Virus record (IMG/VR): IMGVR_UViG_2869455143_000004
Span: 21,318 to 85,317 of that record
DNA: 64,000 nt
Strand: one strand, 5' to 3'
Source: a virus
Taxonomy: Duplodnaviria; Caudoviricetes
Both the position numbers and the translations under genes were made by a program. A model generated the notes under the pieces. The model saw only the letters and a list, made by a program, of their open reading frames with translations. It did no database searches and was not told the DNA's origin. Below, piece by piece: positions 7,115 to 62,454 of the stretch; position 1 is the stretch's first letter, and every line of letters begins with the position of its first letter.

Positions 7115-9009
7115 CCGTAATACTGACTGACAAAATTCTTCTGAAAGACGTGCCTGGCTATATAGCGCCTGCAGTTTCTGATGATATTTACAACGAACTG
7201 ATGAAGGGCCAGAGCGCCGATTTGATGCTGGAAAGCGCCACTATTGAAGAAGTGGACCAGTCTTATCTTGGCGATGAGCTGGTCTATGTCTCTCATGCAG
7301 CAATGTTTGAAGCGATTAGCACTGAGCGCATGCGTTTGTCGCAGACCATGCGCGCGTTCGTAAGGGCATTAAATCGCGGTTTGAACGGAACCGACATTAA
7401 AGCAGGTACGGATGATGCTGGCCTGGACGATAGCGGTGAAAAAACGATTGGAGGGGCTGTCATCGGTAAGGTTCGCCGGGTGAACAGTATTCCAATTATG
7501 ACGGCGTTGATTCCATTATCAGATGGGCAGTCAATTTCCCTGGTTTTCCACTCCCCGACTGCAGATAACGGGCGCGTAAAGAACAATGATTTGCTGGTGG
7601 CCTTCCGTTTCTTGCTGAACAAGCGCGATGTAACACATATTGTGGCCCCCATTGGCGGTCGCGATGTGTCTTTGCAGCAAGTAACGCAAGCTCTTGCAAA
7701 CCTGGCAGAGCGTAACAGTGCAAAATTCACGAAGCAGCAAGATGCTCAGGTTAAATTACGCAGTGATATAGACGCGCTGAACGCTGAAAATGATCAGTTA
7801 AGCGAACAACAATCCTCTCTGCTAACTCAGGTCGAATCACTCCAGACCAAGTTAATCGCACATCAGAGCGATGAGCGGGACGTGCGGGAGAAGCTCGCTA
7901 ACCAGCGTCGAATTAATGCCGAACTGGAGGCTAAAATTGTAGCTTTGCAGGGAGTATCTCAGGCCGGTACCACTGATACCGGTTCATCTTTCACGGATGC
8001 AACGCGCAAAGTGAAAGACCGTATGGGTATTGATGGTAAGGCAACTCTGAGTAATGGGGCCATAATCCGTTACAACTCATATGATCATGACGGCGAGCTG
8101 CAAGGTAGCGTAATTATTACCGATCCTTCTGGTAAGGTTTATGAAATGCCATCCCCATCATCCCAGGGCGGGGCTATGGGGGTTACTGCAACTAAATTAC
8201 TGAAAGCCTATCGAGAGAACCGCGCTGATCGTTACGTTGTCACGACACCACCACCACCAGAACTTCCCCCGGAGCAACCGCCAGAACAACCGCCGGAGTT
8301 GCCACCAGAACAACCGCCAGAACCAACCGCTAAGTACCGTTATGCGCTTACAAGTCGCCCAGCGAGTATCGGTGCTGTCCCGGCAGATCACACTGCAATT
8401 TTGGATGCGCCGGAACAGAGCGATAAATATGGTCGTTTGGCTCGTCATGGTTTCATTGAATACGATCGTAAGCTGACAGAGCAGGAAGCCTCTAATTTTG
8501 AGTTGAAGCTGATTCCGACCGAGGCGGATCTCGATGTACTGGCGAAAACCGTCGTTAGTGATTCAATGGCTAATTACGCACAGCAATATGTTGAAATGGC
8601 TGAGAGTGACCCGGCAACGTTCGGCTCTCAGGTGAAGCTGAATACGAAGAAAGCTGCGCCGAACATTGCTTACCCGGAAGGCGACGATCTCGATTACTTT
8701 ATGGAGAAAGTTAAGGCCGAGTTGGTAAGCCAAACACCTCCCACGCCGCCGCAGACTAATGAGGAAACTCCCGTGGTATCTGAAGCCGATACAGCAGCGA
8801 ATGATGCGTTGAGTTATCTGGATGCCGTAATGCAACTGCAGTCGAAAGACATAGCGGAAATCCGTGACGCCCGTAACAAGGTTCGCGGGGCTATTGCCGC
8901 ACTACAGAATGCTGGTCGTTTTGACGAAAATGAAGACAAAGTGAATGCCGCTGCGCAACACCTGTCTGATTTACTGGTGGCAATTCAAAGAGAGGGGGCT
9001 GGAGCATGA
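7111..9009 (+). CDS. darA: Defence-against-restriction protein DarA
   Basis: 632 aa. N-terminal domain LSDGQSISLVFHSP...RFLLNKRDVTH.VAP, central coiled coil; P1 synteny. Confidence 0.88.
   Translation: MTVILTDKILLKDVPGYIAPAVSDDIYNELMKGQSADLMLESATIEEVDQSYLGDELVYVSHAAMFEAISTERMRLSQTMRAFVRALNRGLNGTDIKAGTDDAGLDDSGEKTIGGAVIGKVRRVNSIPIMTALIPLSDGQSISLVFHSPTADNGRVKNNDLLVAFRFLLNKRDVTHIVAPIGGRDVSLQQVTQALANLAERNSAKFTKQQDAQVKLRSDIDALNAENDQLSEQQSSLLTQVESLQTKLIAHQSDERDVREKLANQRRINAELEAKIVALQGVSQAGTTDTGSSFTDATRKVKDRMGIDGKATLSNGAIIRYNSYDHDGELQGSVIITDPSGKVYEMPSPSSQGGAMGVTATKLLKAYRENRADRYVVTTPPPPELPPEQPPEQPPELPPEQPPEPTAKYRYALTSRPASIGAVPADHTAILDAPEQSDKYGRLARHGFIEYDRKLTEQEASNFELKLIPTEADLDVLAKTVVSDSMANYAQQYVEMAESDPATFGSQVKLNTKKAAPNIAYPEGDDLDYFMEKVKAELVSQTPPTPPQTNEETPVVSEADTAANDALSYLDAVMQLQSKDIAEIRDARNKVRGAIAALQNAGRFDENEDKVNAAAQHLSDLLVAIQREGAGA
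8248..8325 (+). repeat. In-frame Pro-rich tandem repeat (PPEQ/PPEL units) in darA
   Basis: CCGCCAGAACAA-like 12-nt units encoding PPPPELPPEQPPEQPPELPPEQPPEP. Confidence 0.85.
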
Positions 9010-30666: not shown

Positions 30667-30737
30667 TGATCAATAAGCAGGGGGAAGCCTAAGTGATCAA
30701 ATAAGTGATCAAAAAAAAGTGATCATTTGCGTGATCA
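30667..30737. other. Cluster of five TGATCA Dam sites, candidate pac element
   Basis: TGATCA at 30667, 30694, 30706, 30720 and 30732, with more at 30967 and 31119 inside pacA. P1 pac uses methylated TGATCA/G hexamers. Confidence 0.65.
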
Positions 30738-30745
30738 CTCTAAAA

Positions 30746-30762
30746 ACCAGACCGCCTATCCT
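30746..30762 (+). promoter_or_regulatory. Putative late promoter (pacAB)
   Basis: ACCAGACCGCC-TATCCT. Confidence 0.6.
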
Positions 30763-30793
30763 CGCGGCAGTGTGGTTTTTGGCGGTAGGCGTA

Positions 30794-32023
30794 ATGGCAA
30801 AGATTGACTGGGATTGGCACAGGGAAAATTATAAAAAACATAAACTTGAGTCAGGCGTGACTTACAAGGAGTATGCCGAATTCCATTCCTTAAACCCGAA
30901 TACCGCACGTCGCGAACTGAGCAAAAAGACGGATGAAGAGGGGCTGGCGCCCACGCTGTCGGCGCGTGATCAGGCAGATGATCTAACCATCAGAAGGAAG
31001 GGAAGAAAACTCAAGCACAGCAGTGCCTTAGAGGAAATTACAGGAGAGAGTGAACCCGGCGAAACACGCGCAGGCACGAAAAATAAAAAAAATAATTCCA
31101 AAGGCACACGCGCCAAAATGATCAAACCAGTGCATGAGGGGGAAGTGATCCCACATGTACCGAAACAACGAGGTAAGGGTAAGCAATTCGAAACCGGTAA
31201 TGAGGTGAATGTTGTCGCGAATACCAGAGGGAAGCCCCGCGAGGTTGATCGTGATGCTGCTGTCTCATTGTTGGAAGCTGGCCTGGAAGAATGCGAGGCG
31301 TCCACAGTTAAAACAGCCGTCGAGCATATGCAACTGTTGTCGCGAACCACCGCCAGGGCGGTAGAGCTATTCGAAACAGAAATAGCCAACATGAATACCC
31401 CACGAGAAAAGGGTGACAAGGAGGGCGATGACGATGCACCGTCCGGGCCACACCCGCTGTTAAAGCTGACAAAACTCCTGATTGAAGTCGGCTACAGGAT
31501 GGATGACCACGCTACCCGTATCAGTTCTATCCGTTCCTCACGAGAAAAGCTCAAGATTGACCGTGAAAAGCTGGGCGCAAAAGCGACCGAGGCACAGGTT
31601 ATTGCCACCGCCTACCAGCTGCGTGATGAAAACGACTGGGATATAGCAGAAACCGCTGAGTATATCGAGCGTCACGGGGTAAAACTGCCGGACTCCATTG
31701 CCTTGAGGCTGGCTAAGGAGATCAAGGAAGCAGAACCGCCAGTAAGTGACGCCGGTGCTGTTGATGATGACCAGCTGGAAGAAGAGGCCCGTAAATATCG
31801 CGAAGCGCAGGCCGGTAAAGAAGCCTTCCTGAAAGAGCGCCGGGAAACCGTCGCCAGGATTGTAGACGAGGGCGGGTATGGCGATACGAACCATGACGGC
31901 ATCCGGCGCGAAGGGGAGTTAGACCCGGATGAAGAGGGGTTAGATCTCGATTACGAGGCGACCCGCGAGTTATACGGCGAAGGCGATGAAATCGCGATAG
32001 CGCCCCCGGATGAGGACGAATAA
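30794..32023 (+). CDS. pacA: Terminase small subunit PacA
   Basis: Probable start MAKIDWDWH; N-terminal HTH (YKEYAEFHSLNPNTARR); acidic tail; coupled to pacB. Confidence 0.85.
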   Translation: MAKIDWDWHRENYKKHKLESGVTYKEYAEFHSLNPNTARRELSKKTDEEGLAPTLSARDQADDLTIRRKGRKLKHSSALEEITGESEPGETRAGTKNKKNNSKGTRAKMIKPVHEGEVIPHVPKQRGKGKQFETGNEVNVVANTRGKPREVDRDAAVSLLEAGLEECEASTVKTAVEHMQLLSRTTARAVELFETEIANMNTPREKGDKEGDDDAPSGPHPLLKLTKLLIEVGYRMDDHATRISSIRSSREKLKIDREKLGAKATEAQVIATAYQLRDENDWDIAETAEYIERHGVKLPDSIALRLAKEIKEAEPPVSDAGAVDDDQLEEEARKYREAQAGKEAFLKERRETVARIVDEGGYGDTNHDGIRREGELDPDEEGLDLDYEATRELYGEGDEIAIAPPDEDE

Positions 32024-33534
32024 TGGCATCCGGGAAGAAGAAAATAAAATGCGTAACCTCTGATCCGCGCTGGCGTGACATGGCTATCCGCTATCGTCAT
32101 GACTGGGGATTAGCGGTCGTTGAATTGTTCGGAATGCAACCGAGCTGGCAGCAGGATGAAATACTGCAGTCGGTTCAGCAGATAAAGAGCATGACGACCG
32201 TTACATCGGGGCATGGTACCGGTAAGTCATCCCTGACAGCTATGATGCTGATGATTTACATGATTCTGTACCCGGATGCGCGCGTCGTTATCATCGCGAA
32301 CAAAATTGCGCAGGTAAAATCTGGCGTCTTCAAGTACGTAAAAACCTTTTGGGCCAACGCCGTAAAACGTCACCCGTGGCTGCAGAACCACTTTGTTTTA
32401 ACCGACACCATGTTTTATGAAAGAAGCCGGAAAGGTGTGTGGGAAGTTCTCTGTAAAGGCTATCGCCTGGGTAATGAGGAAGGGCTGGCAGGGGAGCACT
32501 CCAAACACTTACTGATAATTCTGGATGAAGCGTCCGGTATCTCTGATAAGGCTATCGGCATCCTTACCGGCGCGCTGACGGAAGCTGATAACCGCATGCT
32601 CATGCTTTCCCAGCCGACGCGCCCGTCTGGTTACTTCTACGACTCTCATCACAGCCTGGCGAAGACTGAACATAACCCTAAAGGGATCTGGACGTCGATT
32701 GTCCTCAACTCTGAAGAATCACCGTTTGTAACTGACGACTTTATTGTCATGAAGCTGGCGGAATATGGCGGTCGTGACAGCATGGAGTACAAAATCAAGG
32801 TACTGGGCCAGTTCCCGTCCGTGATTGATGGCTTCCTGTTGGGCCGCGATGCCTGTGAGCGCGCCCAGCGTCGTAAAGTGTACCTTGAGAAAAACTGGGG
32901 CTGGGTGGCGCTTGCTGACGTCGGGAACGGTCGAGACAAATCCGTCCTGAACATTATGAAGGTAAGCGGCTATCGTGAGAAACGTCGGTTCGTTCCGTTC
33001 GTTGTGCTTGAAATGCCGGGTACCATGAACCCTACAGAGTTCGGTGACTTTATTGCGAACGAATGTACTCAGGAGCGGTTCCCCAATATCACTATAGGCG
33101 TGGATAGTGACGGCGTAGGCTCAGCTACCGCCGACCAGCTGGAGCGCAGGGGAGTTAACGTCGTCCGTATCCGCTGGGGTAAGCCTATGTTCGCCAAAAC
33201 AGATAAGGACCGATTTGTAAGCCAGAGAGCCTATGCCAACATAGCAGCTCGTGACGCCATACAGACAGGCCGGATGAGGCTGGATTCGTCGCCTAAAACA
33301 GCAGAACAGGCCTCTAAAATACCCTGGAAGATAAACGAGGATGGGCGTGTTGCGATGATGAAAAAGGACTACATGCGGCAGAAGATGAATATCAAGTCAC
33401 CTGACCGTTGGGATACGTACTGTTTTTCAACGCTGATATCGTATCGCCCTGCTAATGATGACCTGGGTGGAGACATGGAAGAAACCCGCGCAGATGCACT
33501 GGCAGAACTGTCGAAATATGATGATGTGATTTAA
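32023..33534 (+). CDS. pacB: Terminase large subunit PacB
   Basis: Walker A SGHGTGKS, Walker B IILDEA, RNase H-like nuclease domain with ADVG, VDSDG and SPDRWD. Confidence 0.95.
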   Translation: MASGKKKIKCVTSDPRWRDMAIRYRHDWGLAVVELFGMQPSWQQDEILQSVQQIKSMTTVTSGHGTGKSSLTAMMLMIYMILYPDARVVIIANKIAQVKSGVFKYVKTFWANAVKRHPWLQNHFVLTDTMFYERSRKGVWEVLCKGYRLGNEEGLAGEHSKHLLIILDEASGISDKAIGILTGALTEADNRMLMLSQPTRPSGYFYDSHHSLAKTEHNPKGIWTSIVLNSEESPFVTDDFIVMKLAEYGGRDSMEYKIKVLGQFPSVIDGFLLGRDACERAQRRKVYLEKNWGWVALADVGNGRDKSVLNIMKVSGYREKRRFVPFVVLEMPGTMNPTEFGDFIANECTQERFPNITIGVDSDGVGSATADQLERRGVNVVRIRWGKPMFAKTDKDRFVSQRAYANIAARDAIQTGRMRLDSSPKTAEQASKIPWKINEDGRVAMMKKDYMRQKMNIKSPDRWDTYCFSTLISYRPANDDLGGDMEETRADALAELSKYDDVI

Positions 33535-57533: not shown

Positions 57534-57842
57534 CTACCCAGCTTGTTTACGGCATTTTGGGCATCGGTTGTCGCAGTAATACGGAAAGCTGTTATCCAGC
57601 TCGTCAACCCAGCGCTTGTGATCGTAGCAGTAGAAAACCTCCCACGGCAGACCATACTCAAACATCCATTCTTGGACTTGCGCTGTCATCGGTATTGGCG
57701 GGATCGTACTCTGGTTGGTGCTGTAGCAATTTAAGCGTTCTTCTGCCTCACGCAGCTGGCGCTCAAGGCTCGCTATTTGCTGACGCATCAGCCGCCGTTC
57801 TCTCAGCATTTTGAAGTAAATGCTCTCGTCAGTGACTGCCAT
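57534..57842 (-). CDS. Coiled-coil plus Zn-finger protein, paralogue B
   Basis: Probable start MAVTDES; PWEVFYCYDHKRWVDEL..SFP...CPKC. Confidence 0.7.
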   Translation of the reverse strand: MAVTDESIYFKMLRERRLMRQQIASLERQLREAEERLNCYSTNQSTIPPIPMTAQVQEWMFEYGLPWEVFYCYDHKRWVDELDNSFPYYCDNRCPKCRKQAG

Positions 57843-58125
57843 CTTCCCCCCTACATCCCGGACACGTCCCGTAGGTATCGTGCGGGAAGCTACTACACAA
57901 CTCATCAAGCCAGCGTTCGTGCTCATAGCACCAAAAAACCTCCCACGGAACCCTGTGCTTTTTCATCAGCGCCATCAGGTTTGTCGGCATATCTGCCGGT
58001 TGGCATTCTTCAGGAAGCAGTTGCCCGGAGAGCTGCCTTTCCATGCGCTGCAGCTGGCGCACAAGTTCTGCATTATCCCTTTCCAGTTGCTCACATTTGG
58101 CCTGGAGTTCAGCTTTAGTTGGCAT
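57829..58125 (-). CDS. Coiled-coil plus Zn-finger protein, paralogue A
   Basis: PWEVFWCYEHERWLDEL..SFP...CPGC. Confidence 0.7.
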   Translation of the reverse strand: MPTKAELQAKCEQLERDNAELVRQLQRMERQLSGQLLPEECQPADMPTNLMALMKKHRVPWEVFWCYEHERWLDELCSSFPHDTYGTCPGCRGEDGSH

Positions 58126-58132
58126 AATTCCC

Positions 58133-58462
58133 CTAAATTACGGGAAGCTCATCAGTCACAGCATTTAATGCGGAGTTGATGAGGAATGTAACGACTCCCA
58201 TGACTGTTACATCATCAAGAGCATCCCCTTCAATGGCTTCGCCGTCGTCGGTTATCAACGCTTTCCCCATTACACGTGCAAAGTGAGTACGACCGCAGAA
58301 TGAGATCAGCACCAGGTTGCTCTGTTTTGGCTTAAATGAGCGGTTAACAACGGCGTAGCCGGTCGATGTTTGTATGGTCAAACAGTTAGCATCGTTATGG
58401 CAGATATCGTCTACGGTAAGACGGCGTTCGACATAATCGTTTGCTGGTGATGGAAAGCCCAC
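58133..58462 (-). CDS. humD: HumD-like (pre-cleaved UmuD'-like) protein
   Basis: Probable GTG start giving MGFPSPANDYVE after GAGG; ends DELPVI like P1 HumD; no recognisable S24 catalytic Ser. Confidence 0.75.
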   Translation of the reverse strand: MGFPSPANDYVERRLTVDDICHNDANCLTIQTSTGYAVVNRSFKPKQSNLVLISFCGRTHFARVMGKALITDDGEAIEGDALDDVTVMGVVTFLINSALNAVTDELPVI

Positions 58463-58482
58463 GGGAATACCTCGCACAATAA

Positions 58483-58502
58483 TACTGGTTTTATATACAG
58501 TA
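58483..58502. promoter_or_regulatory. LexA (SOS) box
   Basis: TACTG-GTTTTATATA-CAGTA, a perfect CTG-N10-CAG site just upstream of the humD RBS. Confidence 0.88.
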
Positions 58503-58533
58503 TTACTGTGCAGGGGCATGGTGTCAATTCCGG

Positions 58534-58830
58534 TTACATACGATATTTCTCGGTAATGTGCTCTATGGTGCGATCAATGACGTGTACAAGGCATTTTGCG
58601 TCCAGTGTATCAGCTAACTGAGGGTTGCCGTTCTTTACCTCATACTGAAGCGGTGCTTTGACAATATTCAGTACATCGAGCGCGCGCTGAGGATCGTCCT
58701 CATGAATCATCAGCTCCGCCAGCTCCAGCTGTTGCGCCGCGATCAGGTCGGTAATTTCCTGCTGGTGGCCCACCAGCATTTGCTGCAGCCGGTGCGCATG
58801 ACGTGCCAGCAATTCTTCACGCTTACTCAC
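58534..58830 (-). CDS. Hypothetical protein
   Basis: 98 aa helical ORF in the minus-strand accessory operon. Confidence 0.6.
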   Translation of the reverse strand: MSKREELLARHAHRLQQMLVGHQQEITDLIAAQQLELAELMIHEDDPQRALDVLNIVKAPLQYEVKNGNPQLADTLDAKCLVHVIDRTIEHITEKYRM

Positions 58831-59189
58831 AAATTAATCTCCACATATTCCTTGCAACAGCATTTTGCCCATTCAGAGTCTGCACTCATTTCCCAGGTAA
58901 TGTATTCCCCCCACAAACTGAAGCGCGTGATAGGCCACAGATAGATAAAACCGTCCTGATTTTCTGCCTGTCGCCACGGCTTGTCTTGCGAGGTATAGGC
59001 ATAGTGGCCTGTACGACCGCACCAGCTCGCGAAGAATGCCTCTGGTGAGAAAACTAGATCGTAGAATCGACCAAGTTCCTCAGACCCACGTGGCGGCGTT
59101 CGGAACTTTACCCCTTTCCGCTGCGGGGGAATAAACGCCGGTCCTTTAACTTCGACCGCCTCAACACCTGGGATGAAAAACTTAGCCAT
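58827..59189 (-). CDS. Hypothetical protein
   Basis: Probable start MAKFFIPG, coupled to the upstream gene. Confidence 0.55.
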   Translation of the reverse strand: MAKFFIPGVEAVEVKGPAFIPPQRKGVKFRTPPRGSEELGRFYDLVFSPEAFFASWCGRTGHYAYTSQDKPWRQAENQDGFIYLWPITRFSLWGEYITWEMSADSEWAKCCCKEYVEINL

Positions 59190-59979
59190 CTTGTTTATCC
59201 TCCCCACAACCTTCTTTCTGAGGCTCTGCCAGAAAAGCAAGGCACAAACTGGCCCAGGTATCTTTAGCGTAATCTGATGCCTCGATATCCTTGCGTGAAG
59301 TGACGCGCCATTGTCCATTCTCGTTCAACCGTCGGAATATTTTGGTACCGACATTTTCGATCTCAGGTACGTGTTTAAGGTAAAGACGGCACTGCAGTAA
59401 CGCCTCCCCTGCAGCTATGTTGGCATAGGCCCATGGATTAAAATAACGCGTCGAACGCAACCCTTCGGCTTCAGGTCTTGCCATAGATACGCGCTGCGGT
59501 TTCACTCCTGACCTCTCCAGTGCCTCAGCTAAATGTCTGCCCAGCCCCTCTTCAGCAATAACAACATGCCAGACATTTTGTTTTATTCGGGACAGTACCT
59601 CTTCTTCGGTCAGATGCTCACCAATATCAACCGCAATAAAGCGTCTTTCGTTCATTTCTCCTGATACGCGGAAAAGAGAAAAATTGATACCTGAAAGGCG
59701 ACTGCTATAGCTACAGCAAGCTACCAGCTGTGAATTAGTCCATTCAAAATTGACCACTGCTGTATTGCTCTGCTTTGCCTCGTTAAGTTCAGTTTCGGTG
59801 TATAACGGCATCCATAAATTATCTGAGCCGCAAGGTACCACTCCACTATTTAGTAATGTACTGCTTAATTTTGCTCTCAGTTGCTGTGTATTCTGGTATT
59901 TAATTGCTGTATCAAATAGTGCGTTTACCAGGTCCCGATAAAGATGCGGTGGTAATGGGTATAAGTCTGAGTTAGGCAT
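59182..59979 (-). CDS. Stand-alone paralogue of the PacB terminase nuclease domain, with a short N-terminal accessory module
   Basis: Colinear blocks shared with PacB in this window (VSG...RRF, EG.G...A..LER.GV, AYANIAA, K....NE.G, D.W). Catalytic Asp residues substituted. Confidence 0.85.
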   Translation of the reverse strand: MPNSDLYPLPPHLYRDLVNALFDTAIKYQNTQQLRAKLSSTLLNSGVVPCGSDNLWMPLYTETELNEAKQSNTAVVNFEWTNSQLVACCSYSSRLSGINFSLFRVSGEMNERRFIAVDIGEHLTEEEVLSRIKQNVWHVVIAEEGLGRHLAEALERSGVKPQRVSMARPEAEGLRSTRYFNPWAYANIAAGEALLQCRLYLKHVPEIENVGTKIFRRLNENGQWRVTSRKDIEASDYAKDTWASLCLAFLAEPQKEGCGEDKQDG

Positions 59980-60280
59980 TGATATTCACCTTAATTGCAA
60001 ACACCTTCACCGGCTCGGCACCAAAGTGAGGATGAGTTATTGTCTCTATGTCATAGCCGTCATACGGAACAACTATGCGCCGATCCGCGTCGTCTTTGCG
60101 TGGATAGCCCCTGGTAATAATCAGGCGGTCATATGAGCGGCCTACCAGCCGCTTAGTCCAATATTCAGTACACAAACGGTACTCTTTGGGTTTTTCTCCA
60201 CGCTTCATAGCGTCAAAATATTCGCCTTTCACTGCCAGGTGGAGATCAGCCATTCTTTTTATTCCGGTTATATGTAGCAC
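59972..60280 (-). CDS. ASCH-domain protein
   Basis: LAVKGEYFDAMKRGEKPKEYR (ASCH GxKxxExR motif). Confidence 0.8.
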   Translation of the reverse strand: MLHITGIKRMADLHLAVKGEYFDAMKRGEKPKEYRLCTEYWTKRLVGRSYDRLIITRGYPRKDDADRRIVVPYDGYDIETITHPHFGAEPVKVFAIKVNINA

Positions 60281-60690: not shown

Positions 60691-61495
60691 TCTCCTTATC
60701 CATGTGTTTTAGTAAATTCTCGTACCCTCCGAACTCTTCAATCATGAAGCCAAAGCGATTAAACATCGCATTTAGCAAACGGATTCCGCGTGGTTTCAGG
60801 CGAGGTGTTTCGCCCAAGTGAGCGAGATATCCACTTTCGTTGGGTTTATCAAGAATTAGAAGTTTCGCGTATAAATACTGTCGGTAAGCCAATGTCCGAC
60901 GCTCTGCAAAGTATTCATCTACAAAACAAGCGATCGTCTGGCAACTAAGCATTATGTCGCCATTCTCATGGCGAAATACCGGACGACGATGTAAAGACAC
61001 CAAATGGACTAAATAGGATTCACTCAGCCACATTAAGGCAGGCGATGGCTGAGTCTGGCTTTTATTCAGTGAATATTCAGCCAATTTAGCATCCACATCT
61101 AGCTCTTCTTTGAGGATATTGAGATGCGTTTCTTCCACACTGAATTTAGGTACAGGGCGAAGCTCACCGCATATCATACGGTGCTCATAACCAATGATTT
61201 CAGGAGATTGTTCTACCGGCGCTGGTGGCTCGGCGTATACAATACGGATCGGTGAACCATGATCACGATGGTCTTCATAACGCTCTTTGGTTACATCTCT
61301 CCATTGCTGACCATATTGAACCTGATAAATAGGGGTGGCATGCGACGATGCCAGCGCAATACGCGCCAGTTCAAGGACTACACCAGGCGGTGCCAGCTTT
61401 TCGAACTCAAGCCAGTAATTTGGATCAGGATGGCACGTTGCCTCACCTGCAAAAAAAATAATCTGCTCCAGTTGTTCTCTGGTAATAGTGGTCAT
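60653..61495 (-). CDS. Ead/Ea22-like modular protein
   Basis: MTTITREQLEQ, VLELARIALAS, WRDVTKERY and RIVYAEPPAP modules. Confidence 0.7.
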   Translation of the reverse strand: MTTITREQLEQIIFFAGEATCHPDPNYWLEFEKLAPPGVVLELARIALASSHATPIYQVQYGQQWRDVTKERYEDHRDHGSPIRIVYAEPPAPVEQSPEIIGYEHRMICGELRPVPKFSVEETHLNILKEELDVDAKLAEYSLNKSQTQPSPALMWLSESYLVHLVSLHRRPVFRHENGDIMLSCQTIACFVDEYFAERRTLAYRQYLYAKLLILDKPNESGYLAHLGETPRLKPRGIRLLNAMFNRFGFMIEEFGGYENLLKHMDKEIAGGEPATSSKQ

Positions 61496-62454
61496 TTTGC
61501 ATCCCCTTTAATCATGGCGGCGCGGCTGTTCCATACTGATTTCAAATTTTCTTTAAATCCAAATTCAACATGGGATGAAGCCCCACATTCAGTACAGGTA
61601 ATAACATCGCCACCAAAATGCGGATCGTTATCTTGCTCAATGGTGAGTTGACGCGCTTTACCGCCACAAAATGGGCATGGAATAAGCCCATTTTCTGAAT
61701 CCGGCATTACTGGCGCTGGCGGTATACCAGCATTTGGGTGCAATGCCCGGATCCCCTCAGCTATCTCTGCTAACGTGTCGGAATATTCACGCTGCGCGTC
61801 GTTGCCAAACTCAAATGAACCAGTGTCATTGTCACGGCGACCGTGTTCGTTGTCGTAGGATTCGCGTTGCTGGTCTACCCAATTAGCTGCGGCTTCTATG
61901 CCATCACGGTAGAACGAGACTGTAGGCACCTTGTCAGTCTCGCTTACAGATTTGGCGGTAGGCGTGTTCTTGTGGTTGTTCCATGAGCCTACTTCATCAT
62001 CAACTTTGCCCTGAAGCATGGCGGCGCGGCGGATTTCGCTCTCCAGTTCTTCAGCCCAATCCTGCCACTCTTCCGGTAATCCGTTTTTACTGCTGGCTAC
62101 GTGATTTGCCAGTTTATAGAGTTCATCATTCACTACCGGCGCTGGCGGTGCGGTGTAGAGAATGCGTACTTCACAATCCGTCTTTTTAGCGAATCCGTCG
62201 TACTGTGCTTTGGTGCAGTCATCCCAAAGGCTCCCCTCTTCATAACGCTCACGCCATTGGTAAATAGGATCAGAGCTATCAGCATCGCGACGTTGCTGCA
62301 GCTCCACCAGCGCAATGAGCGTAAGGGACTGAATGGCATGTTGAACTTTATTCCCCTCGCTGGCGTGGTGATCTACGCCACTTTTGCGTATCTCTATCAG
62401 ATCCGTTAGGGCTTCATCGTCCAAGCTATCCGGCGTAATTGGCTGTAGTTCCAT
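61492..62454 (-). CDS. Ead/Ea22-like modular protein with a C-terminal Lar-like Zn-ribbon
   Basis: RILYTAPPAP module; LIPCPFCGG...ITCTECGA...WNSRA. Confidence 0.72.
   Translation of the reverse strand: MELQPITPDSLDDEALTDLIEIRKSGVDHHASEGNKVQHAIQSLTLIALVELQQRRDADSSDPIYQWRERYEEGSLWDDCTKAQYDGFAKKTDCEVRILYTAPPAPVVNDELYKLANHVASSKNGLPEEWQDWAEELESEIRRAAMLQGKVDDEVGSWNNHKNTPTAKSVSETDKVPTVSFYRDGIEAAANWVDQQRESYDNEHGRRDNDTGSFEFGNDAQREYSDTLAEIAEGIRALHPNAGIPPAPVMPDSENGLIPCPFCGGKARQLTIEQDNDPHFGGDVITCTECGASSHVEFGFKENLKSVWNSRAAMIKGDAK

Follow-up and report, generated by a model that had tools for sequence, protein, structure and literature searches.

A predicted stand-alone pseudo-nuclease related to the large terminase PacB in a Citrobacter P1-like phage-plasmid

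Introduction

The window analyzed in this study is the 64,000-nucleotide stretch that spans bases 21318-85317 of the 85,317-base IMG/VR virus record IMGVR_UViG_2869455143_000004, and it carries a P1-type phage-plasmid gene set that includes lpa, pacA (30719-32023 of the window), pacB (32023..33534, plus strand), a c1-like gene and a cre-like gene. On the minus strand, at 59182..59979, lies an open reading frame (ORF) of 265 amino acids (aa), here P0002, that is composed of an N-terminal helical module (residues 1-57; 59809..59979), a putative pseudo-nuclease domain that resembles the C-terminal domain of the large terminase PacB (residues 58-252; 59224..59808) and a short acidic tail that ends in EGCGEDKQDG (59182..59223). 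For the DNA of this ORF, identity is 100% with the 88-kb Citrobacter freundii plasmid NZ_CP125312.1 and 97-99% with four further C. freundii plasmids of 85-95 kb, and the element is a Citrobacter P1-like phage-plasmid. The ORF sits 25.6 kb from pacB in a variable accessory operon, in good agreement with an earlier note on this DNA that had placed it among accessory genes about 26 kb away.

Tailed phages have the large terminase as a hallmark enzyme, and it is a main target of bacterial pattern-recognition immunity. The earlier note had proposed that the ORF is a catalytically altered copy of the nuclease domain of the phage's own terminase, fused to a helical accessory module, and that it could serve either as an immune decoy or as a regulator of packaging. 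We describe the relationship of the ORF to PacB, the state of its active site and its maintenance and distribution, and weigh the roles that such a protein may have.

Results

A distant copy of the nuclease half of PacB

The paralogous reference for the ORF is the C-domain (approximately 32836-33450) of the element's own PacB, a large terminase of 503 aa (P0001). BLASTP of the ORF against this protein gives an E value of 7e-14 with 25% identity over 190 aa, in which ORF residues 85-264 are aligned with PacB residues 311-487, and this single alignment contains all five pairs of PacB and ORF peptides that had first been quoted as signs of the relationship. The PacB proteins of P1, P7, RCS47 and SJ46 are matched by tblastn at 29.8% identity, with E values of 2e-10 to 3e-10. 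Across 50,697 phage records, tblastn returned only two classes of match, namely the C-terminal half of PacB in P1, P7, RCS47, SJ46, D6 and their relatives, and short matches to ORF residues 2-42. Homology begins at about ORF residue 58, corresponding to about PacB residue 272 in the inter-domain linker, such that the ATPase domain is absent as had been stated, and neither tblastn nor hhalign detected a second PacB ATPase-like sequence in the window. The segments that are best kept between the ORF and PacB are core helices.

An exhaustive phmmer search with ORF residues 56-265 against 1.84 billion representatives produced seven matches, which comprise the ORF family, PacB and PacB fragments, two further stand-alone proteins described below (P0010 and P0012) and one repetitive protein of 3,639 aa that we took to be a chance match. 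No match to the ORF was found by megablast of the phage collection or in Pfam at E values of up to 10, and phmmer searches of the PDB sequences gave only chance matches for the ORF and for PacB alike. Pfam reaches the PacB C-domain poorly as well, as Terminase_6C is matched by only one of the 75 members (E 0.004) of an alignment, A4, that contains the ORF family, its stand-alone relatives and 67 PacBs. PacA was considered as a hidden relative of the ORF domain and rejected (hhalign probability 0.1%). The ORF family is very small and its similarity to PacB is specific, and the ORF is a true although distant stand-alone paralogue of the PacB nuclease domain.

Predicted structure

An AlphaFold2 (AF2) model of ORF residues 56-265 built from alignment A4 has a predicted local distance difference test score (pLDDT) of 85 and a predicted template modelling score (pTM) of 0.83; since PacB rows dominate this alignment, these values describe compatibility with the PacB fold and are no independent determination of the fold. 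In the model, strands and helices follow one another as in an RNase H-like domain, including the beta-hairpin typical of terminases. When the model was compared with the PDB using Foldseek, the top 13 matches were all nuclease domains of large terminases (TerL) or whole TerL proteins, with the best match to Sf6 gp2 (E 4e-7) followed by E217, HK97, G20c, D6E, P74-26, SPP1, T4/RB49 gp17 and P22. The terminase chain of an Avs3 complex (8dgc_E) is also among these structural matches. Structural matches in BFVD are terminases as well, and a protein-language-model search led to terminase fragments and to Terminase_6C.

Loss of catalytic residues and of positive charge

Conserved acidic positions were counted over the 67 PacBs in alignment A4 and compared with the five members of the ORF family. 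The motif I aspartate, PacB D299, is present in 65/67 PacBs and is Ser or Gly in the ORF family, and D361 of motif II (VDxDG) and D464 of motif III, which are both invariant (67/67), are each replaced by Ala. These are the three replacements, correctly numbered, that had been read from the sequence beforehand. PacB D305 (65/67) is additionally replaced by Ser in the ORF family, D363 (63/67) is replaced by Glu, and D461 (67/67) remains Asp. In the ORF of the window, Ser90 (59710..59712, minus strand) lies opposite D299 in the 75-sequence alignment and Leu85 (59725-59727) lies opposite it in a smaller one, so that the residue is non-acidic in either alignment. The codons of Ala142 (59554..59556, minus strand) and Ala243 (59251..59253, minus strand), which replace D361 and D464, respectively, were read directly. 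E79 was considered as an equivalent of motif I and rejected, as the alignments place it ahead of strand 1 and against Gly or Arg. Comparison of the joint PacB/ORF profile with Sf6 gp2 by hhalign superimposes the C-terminal helix on the Sf6 helix of the catalytic D444, with PacB D464 (ORF A243) on D444 itself, and places ORF R229/K230 on Sf6 K428, which lies near the active site.

Net charge, used here as a proxy for DNA-binding character, has changed together with the active site. The PacB C-domain has a median net charge of +10 with a 5-95% range of +2.3 to +14.7 (n=67), and the charge is positive in 66 of these 67 domains, the lone sequence at or below zero being chimeric. The domain of the ORF has a net charge of -3 and an isoelectric point of 5.9, and the values in its family are -3 or -4 (+1 in a form from Hafnia). 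With its fold and core helices kept and its canonical metal ligands missing, the domain is predicted to be a pseudo-nuclease, and the ORF product a putative pseudoenzyme derived from a large terminase. Since the catalytic metals and the positive charge are both gone, work on DNA is unlikely, the protein presumably being able neither to cut nor to hold it, and the explanation shifts to the binding of protein.

Maintenance, distribution and ancestry

The frame of the ORF is intact in C. freundii, in C. europaeus and in a Hafnia metagenome bin, with identities of 82-98%. The ratio of nonsynonymous to synonymous substitution rates (dN/dS, Nei-Gojobori method) is 0.20-0.26 between the Citrobacter and Hafnia genes at a dS of about 0.44, and is 0.3-0.67 among very close copies of the ORF, where the counts are small. 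The ORF nonetheless evolves faster than its neighbours do, as its identity at the C. europaeus locus (L006) is 90% as compared with 96-99% for the ASCH, p98, humD and p98b genes. One sequence, P0007, was considered as a natural pseudogene and rejected, as the long-read assembly from which it derives has 24 gap openings in 2.9 kb and the apparent disruption is an artefact. The comparison between genera points to purifying selection in place of neutral decay, and the ORF is evidently maintained by selection.

Maintenance goes together with rarity. The ORF is present in only 5 of the 735 PLSDB plasmids that have a PacB-like match, all five from C. freundii, and in two additional IMG/VR contigs of 86 and 90 kb, and it was found in none of 185,579 species-representative genomes. 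A maximum-likelihood tree of the C-domains separates PacBs of the enterobacterial/Vibrio type from those of the Pseudomonas type with 97% support in the Shimodaira-Hasegawa-like approximate likelihood ratio test (SH-aLRT). The ORF family belongs to the enterobacterial/Vibrio part of the tree, and its stem measures 3.73 substitutions per site as compared with 0.1-0.4 for internal PacB branches.

Other PacB C-domain copies that lack motif I

Copies of the PacB C-domain without the motif I aspartate are also found outside of the ORF family. The P0012 family (P0012 and P0113-P0119) comprises eight clusters at 90% identity, each of which encodes a protein of 223-241 aa with its own start codon; P0012 itself, a stand-alone PacB-C-like protein, lies at positions 8001-8693, 1359-2051 and 1748-2440 of loci L003, L004 and L005, respectively. 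The genes of this family are located among small genes beside polyvalent-protein genes of the DarA_N, DdrB-ParB, InPase and LPD1 types. Their products are 43% identical to a PacB-like terminase of Pseudomonas plasmids and have Val in place of the motif I Asp, with the motif II and motif III Asp kept. A further stand-alone PacB-C-like ORF of 217 aa, P0010, lies downstream of a cre-like recombinase gene (L002:2681-3334), is 49% identical to a Citrobacter PacB and likewise has Val at motif I. The 3' neighbour of P0010 encodes a protein of 216 aa that has a zinc ribbon at its C-terminus. Two other candidates for stand-alone forms, P0112 and P0120, were rejected, as they are contig-end fragments of real PacBs in which motif I is kept.

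A different arrangement occurs on the P. fluorescens plasmid CP048608.1, where a hypothetical protein of 431 aa (L012:1610-2905) is encoded 2.3 kb upstream of a PacB-like gene (L012:5200-6750). The central domain of this protein is 33% identical to the plasmid's own PacB-like terminase (E 3e-32) and has Arg at the motif I Asp and Glu at motif III, with the Asp of motif II kept. It represents a second, larger architecture of the PacB C-domain copy among those Pseudomonas plasmids in which a PacB-like terminase is encoded.

The stand-alone copies have net charges of -2 to -7 as compared with 0 to +2 for PacBs of the Pseudomonas type and about +10 for those of the enterobacterial type. In the tree, the P0012 family and the 431-aa protein group with Pseudomonas-type PacB, apart from the ORF family, and this position implies that they originated separately from it. 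Consistent with this, a single clade of P0012-type copies and the ORF, apart from the PacBs, was not recovered given the 97% SH-aLRT split, although this result carries a long-branch caveat. That motif-I-less, de-charged copies of a single domain have arisen repeatedly and independently argues more strongly than anything else for their usefulness.

The N-terminal module and the C-terminal tail

The helical accessory module that the earlier note had described in front of the nuclease-like domain can be traced from about residue 2 to residue 45, and matches only PHROGs of unknown function. Nine such PHROGs are matched by ORF residues 10-45, at varying positions of their profiles, and hypothetical proteins from Serratia and Acinetobacter phages contain segments with 54-62% identity to the module. 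For example, in Serratia phage BZS1 the module (58% identity) is located near the C-terminus of a 233-aa protein that is encoded in the early region beside xis and int. Copies from the Serratia and Acinetobacter phages lie at L010:2501-2623 and L011:2501-2617, and the window itself contains no further copy. As a segment of about 40 aa with the pattern LPPHxYRxLVNxLxDTAxKYxxTxQLRxxL, it may be N-terminal, internal or C-terminal in hypothetical proteins that are otherwise unrelated. A low-confidence AF2 model built from 10 sequences (pLDDT 46) contains two helices in this region. The N-terminal segment of the ORF is a mobile helical module that is common to unrelated phage accessory proteins.

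At the other end of the protein is the short acidic tail, and the C-terminal tail of PacB is absent from the ORF. In the Hafnia homologue (P0006, L007:1-864) a 37-aa Cys4 zinc ribbon of the form CxxC...CxC is inserted directly before the common GCGEDK tail, and the sequences are compatible both with a loss of this ribbon in Citrobacter and with a gain of it in Hafnia.

Neighbouring genes

The ORF belongs to a run of approximately 10 kb in which some 27 small genes overlap at their ends and which extends between the major capsid gene and a RepB-type replicon. This minus-strand run includes Ea22-like proteins, one of them with a Lar-type zinc ribbon, as well as an ASCH protein and a UmuD-like protein. 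Directly upstream of the ORF is the ASCH-domain gene (59972..60280, minus strand), named after annotated relatives and matching phrog_625 here, the stop codon of which overlaps the ORF start (ATGCCTAA). Adjacency of these two genes with overlapping stop and start codons is found in 6/6 of the relatives that have upstream sequence. Directly downstream is a gene for a 120-aa protein without a family match (58827..59189, minus strand), the start codon of which overlaps the ORF stop (ATGGCTAA), so that the two are translationally coupled. This gene was found only in the window and in plasmid NZ_CP114569.1 and is an inserted cassette, as in the other relatives a 98-aa gene (58534-58830 in the window) lies directly 3' of the ORF. 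The conserved block is composed of the ASCH gene, the ORF, p98, humD and p98b, and the region upstream of the ASCH gene is highly mosaic even between plasmids that are otherwise similar.

Several other genes of this run have recognizable relatives. The UmuD-like protein, of HumD type, is encoded at 58133-58519 (minus strand) and matches PHROG 3469 with an E value of 2e-46 and no Pfam family at E values of up to 0.01. A 320-aa Ea22-like mosaic protein (61492-62454, minus strand) ends in the Lar-type restriction-alleviation zinc ribbon (PF14354, E 5e-7). The two ORFs at 57534-57926 and 57829-58125, both on the minus strand, match phrog_3797, which is of unknown function, and overlap by 98 bp, such that the start of the 57534-57926 ORF is probably further downstream; the RefSeq label "antitoxin PHD" on a homologue of the 57829-58125 ORF looks doubtful. 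No match to the P1 C1 operator consensus is present in the window at up to 3 mismatches, and promoter and terminator scans of the window performed no better than chance.

Discussion

A possible stand-in for PacB in packaging

The retention of a core with the loss of both catalysis and substrate binding is a classic signature of poison or regulatory pseudo-subunits, and we tentatively favor a role of this kind for the ORF protein in packaging by PacB-type terminases. According to this proposal the ORF protein would mimic the PacB C-domain in binding one of its normal partners, and would thereby occupy a contact of the PacB nuclease domain as a non-productive stand-in, that is, as a "poison" or as a regulatory pseudo-subunit. 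The contact taken over might be one with PacA, or else one with adjacent subunits or the ATPase domain of PacB, and the outcome would be that packaging by PacB-type terminases is restrained or blocked. We regard such a role, exerted through protein binding, as possible and well short of probable.

The kept core, together with the loss of catalysis and positive charge, makes a pacase stand-in a somewhat better fit to the ORF than a decoy of Avs immune proteins. Furthermore, the gene is rare, such copies have originated independently more than once and the operon is a variable, accessory one, which suggests that the role is not in core packaging but in conflict, the probable opponents being co-resident or superinfecting P1-like elements. 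The rarity of the ORF, its long stem, its fast evolution and the operon that it shares with a Lar-like restriction-alleviation domain together form a conflict-like signature.

Several points weigh against this proposal. A pattern in which the fold is kept and catalysis and charge are lost would also fit a decoy, or the binding of an unrelated partner. The proposal moreover gives no account of how the element's own terminase would be spared, as its PacB and the PacBs of other P1-like phages are about equally distant from the ORF (25-30% identity). The PacB C-terminal tail is missing from the ORF, and in several other phages it is the very C-terminal end of the large terminase that binds the portal. 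Two acidic neighbours of the catalytic positions are retained, with ORF E144 corresponding to PacB D363 and ORF D240 to PacB D461, and their survival leaves some room, which we judge to be very slight, for a remodelled metal site. Finally, the point at which the ORF family attaches to the tree is unsafe as a consequence of its long branch, and P0010 is known from one 4-kb contig only.

Alternative explanations

Roughly as likely as a role in the pacase is one that has nothing to do with terminase. The nuclease-like domain would in that case be a co-opted scaffold, the partner of which lies outside both packaging and terminase sensing, as for example the coupled ASCH protein or a host factor, and the terminase ancestry of the protein would be historical only. 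The very long stem and the identity of about 25% leave room for a new function, the new mobile N-terminal module and the zinc ribbon of the Hafnia form could be read in the same way, and the overlap with the ASCH gene recurs in all six relatives that have upstream sequence. However, gene adjacency is weak evidence for binding, and the segments best conserved with PacB are the core helices and not a new surface. Additionally, this explanation does not account for the independent motif-I-less copies, the stand-alone ones acidic, in several P1-type lineages. Taken by itself it is doubtful.

The first of the two roles named in the earlier note, an immune decoy, is unlikely, although a number of observations would accommodate it. 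Under this alternative the dead domain would bind sensors of the terminase fold (those of the Avs1 or Avs3 type and some Avs2 proteins) without activating them, and would shield PacB during lytic growth. The ORF keeps the terminase nuclease fold and is free of features prone to cause toxicity, namely catalysis and DNA-binding charge; its operon also encodes the Lar-like anti-restriction domain; its rarity, fast evolution and recurrent origin resemble an arms race; and the structural matches of its model include 8dgc_E, the terminase chain of the Avs3 complex. Analysis of terminase sensing has established that SeAvs3 binds the natively folded nuclease domain and that some nuclease domains can trigger KpAvs2 (PMC13601566). 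However, the same study indicates that EcAvs2 and Upx detect the ATPase domain and for the most part disregard the nuclease domain, and that SeAvs3 reads active-site residues of the terminase (PMC13601566), of which those of the nuclease are gone from the ORF. The charge shift of about 13 units would moreover alter the surface that a sensor would recognise, and a decoy that mimics terminase is undescribed in the literature searched. We consider improbable, to the same degree, the broader proposal that the ORF and its independently evolved analogues are charge-inverted dead mimics of a conserved phage protein that bind host pattern-recognition sensors (Avs1/Avs3-type or nuclease-sensing Avs2 proteins) without triggering them; they would then constitute the first decoys of a core component of virion assembly in the immunity of bacteria to phages.

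It is considerably less probable that the ORF protein is an accessory subunit of the element's own pacase that is required for normal timing or fidelity of pac cleavage. The pacB gene of P1 is reported to encode a second in-frame protein, and the region of PacB that would make up this internal product is precisely the one to which the ORF is paralogous; in addition, the 431-aa Pseudomonas protein, which has the same kind of domain, is encoded 2.3 kb upstream of a pacB gene. Yet no internal pacB product is present in the annotation of the P1 record, the ORF is missing from about 99% of PacB-bearing plasmids, P1 included, and its location, 25.6 kb away from pacAB in an accessory operon of variable content, is outside of the late packaging operon.

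That the protein is a still-active nuclease with a site remodelled from E143/E144, D240 and E/D79 is very unlikely. E144 and D240 do not vary within the family and lie opposite two conserved PacB residues, D363 and D461, residue 79 is Glu or Asp in every member, and R229/K230 aligns with Sf6 K428. Against this, the three canonical ligands of the two metals and the conserved PacB D305 are all replaced, the domain as a whole is acidic, and E79 is placed ahead of strand 1, where PacB and P0010 have Gly or Arg.

Least probable of all is a decaying, functionless relic of a second terminase gene that was left by recombination between P1-like elements, as the rare distribution, the mosaic surroundings and the dN/dS of 0.3-0.67 among the closest copies (small counts) are set against a frame that is intact in every properly assembled copy from two genera, a dN/dS of 0.20-0.26 at a dS of 0.44, start and stop codons that are coupled to neighbouring genes, and a sole apparent fragment, P0007, that comes from an indel-ridden long-read assembly.

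What a dead terminase copy would mean

Among P1-type elements, the first catalytic Asp and the positive charge have been lost in more than one lineage of PacB, which speaks for the repeated use, under selection, of a protein that looks like a terminase. In the literature searched there is no description of a stand-alone, maintained and catalytically dead copy of the nuclease half of a terminase. Phage-plasmids are important carriers of resistance genes in Enterobacterales, and a poison or regulator of PacB-type packaging, if this is indeed what the ORF encodes, would represent a new mode of competition between them. If the protein were instead an immune decoy, it would represent a new class of anti-defence protein.

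Comparison with known systems

There is precedent for interference with terminase or virion assembly by small proteins. The satellite proteins Ppi of Staphylococcus aureus pathogenicity islands (SaPI) and Rpp of phage-inducible chromosomal islands (PICI) bind subunits of the helper terminase. Tab, which is encoded by the Pseudomonas prophage JBD26, blocks virion assembly and is a precedent for interference with a competitor by a small protein (PMC10884400). None of Tab, Ppi and Rpp is a paralogue of its own target, and we found no relation in sequence or fold between any of them and the ORF.

With respect to structure, the ORF model shares the RNase H-like fold with solved TerL nuclease domains, including those of Sf6 gp2 (5c15/5c12), E217 (8dkr), HK97 (6z6d), G20c (5m1f), SPP1 (2wc9), T4 gp17 (3cpe) and P22 (4dkw), with Foldseek E values of 4e-7 to 2e-2, probabilities of 0.9-1.0 and TM scores of 0.4-0.6. 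The solved domains have the catalytic Asp triad and are fused to an ATPase domain, whereas the ORF has neither, and sequence identity to them is only 9-15%. The resemblance is closer to P1-type PacB, the region of which from about residue 272 to residue 476 has the same order of secondary structure as the ORF, with 25-30% identity and E values of 1e-10 to 1e-14, and the core motifs RVSG, GxG...LE..G, R[YF]xNxxAYANxAA, KIxxxxNExG and DxW are present in both proteins. PacB has an ATPase domain and a C-terminal tail that are both absent from the ORF, and the ORF carries a foreign N-terminal module and an accessory-operon location that PacB does not share.

The closest parallels in kind are the P0012 family, P0010 and the 431-aa protein. 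These differ from the ORF in that they keep acidic residues at motifs II and III and are without its N-terminal module, and in that P0012 and P0010 are 43-49% identical to a local PacB (33% in the case of the 431-aa protein). Like the ORF, however, all of them are copies of the PacB C-domain without the motif I Asp, the stand-alone ones acidic, and all are encoded among small accessory genes of elements that carry P1-type genes.

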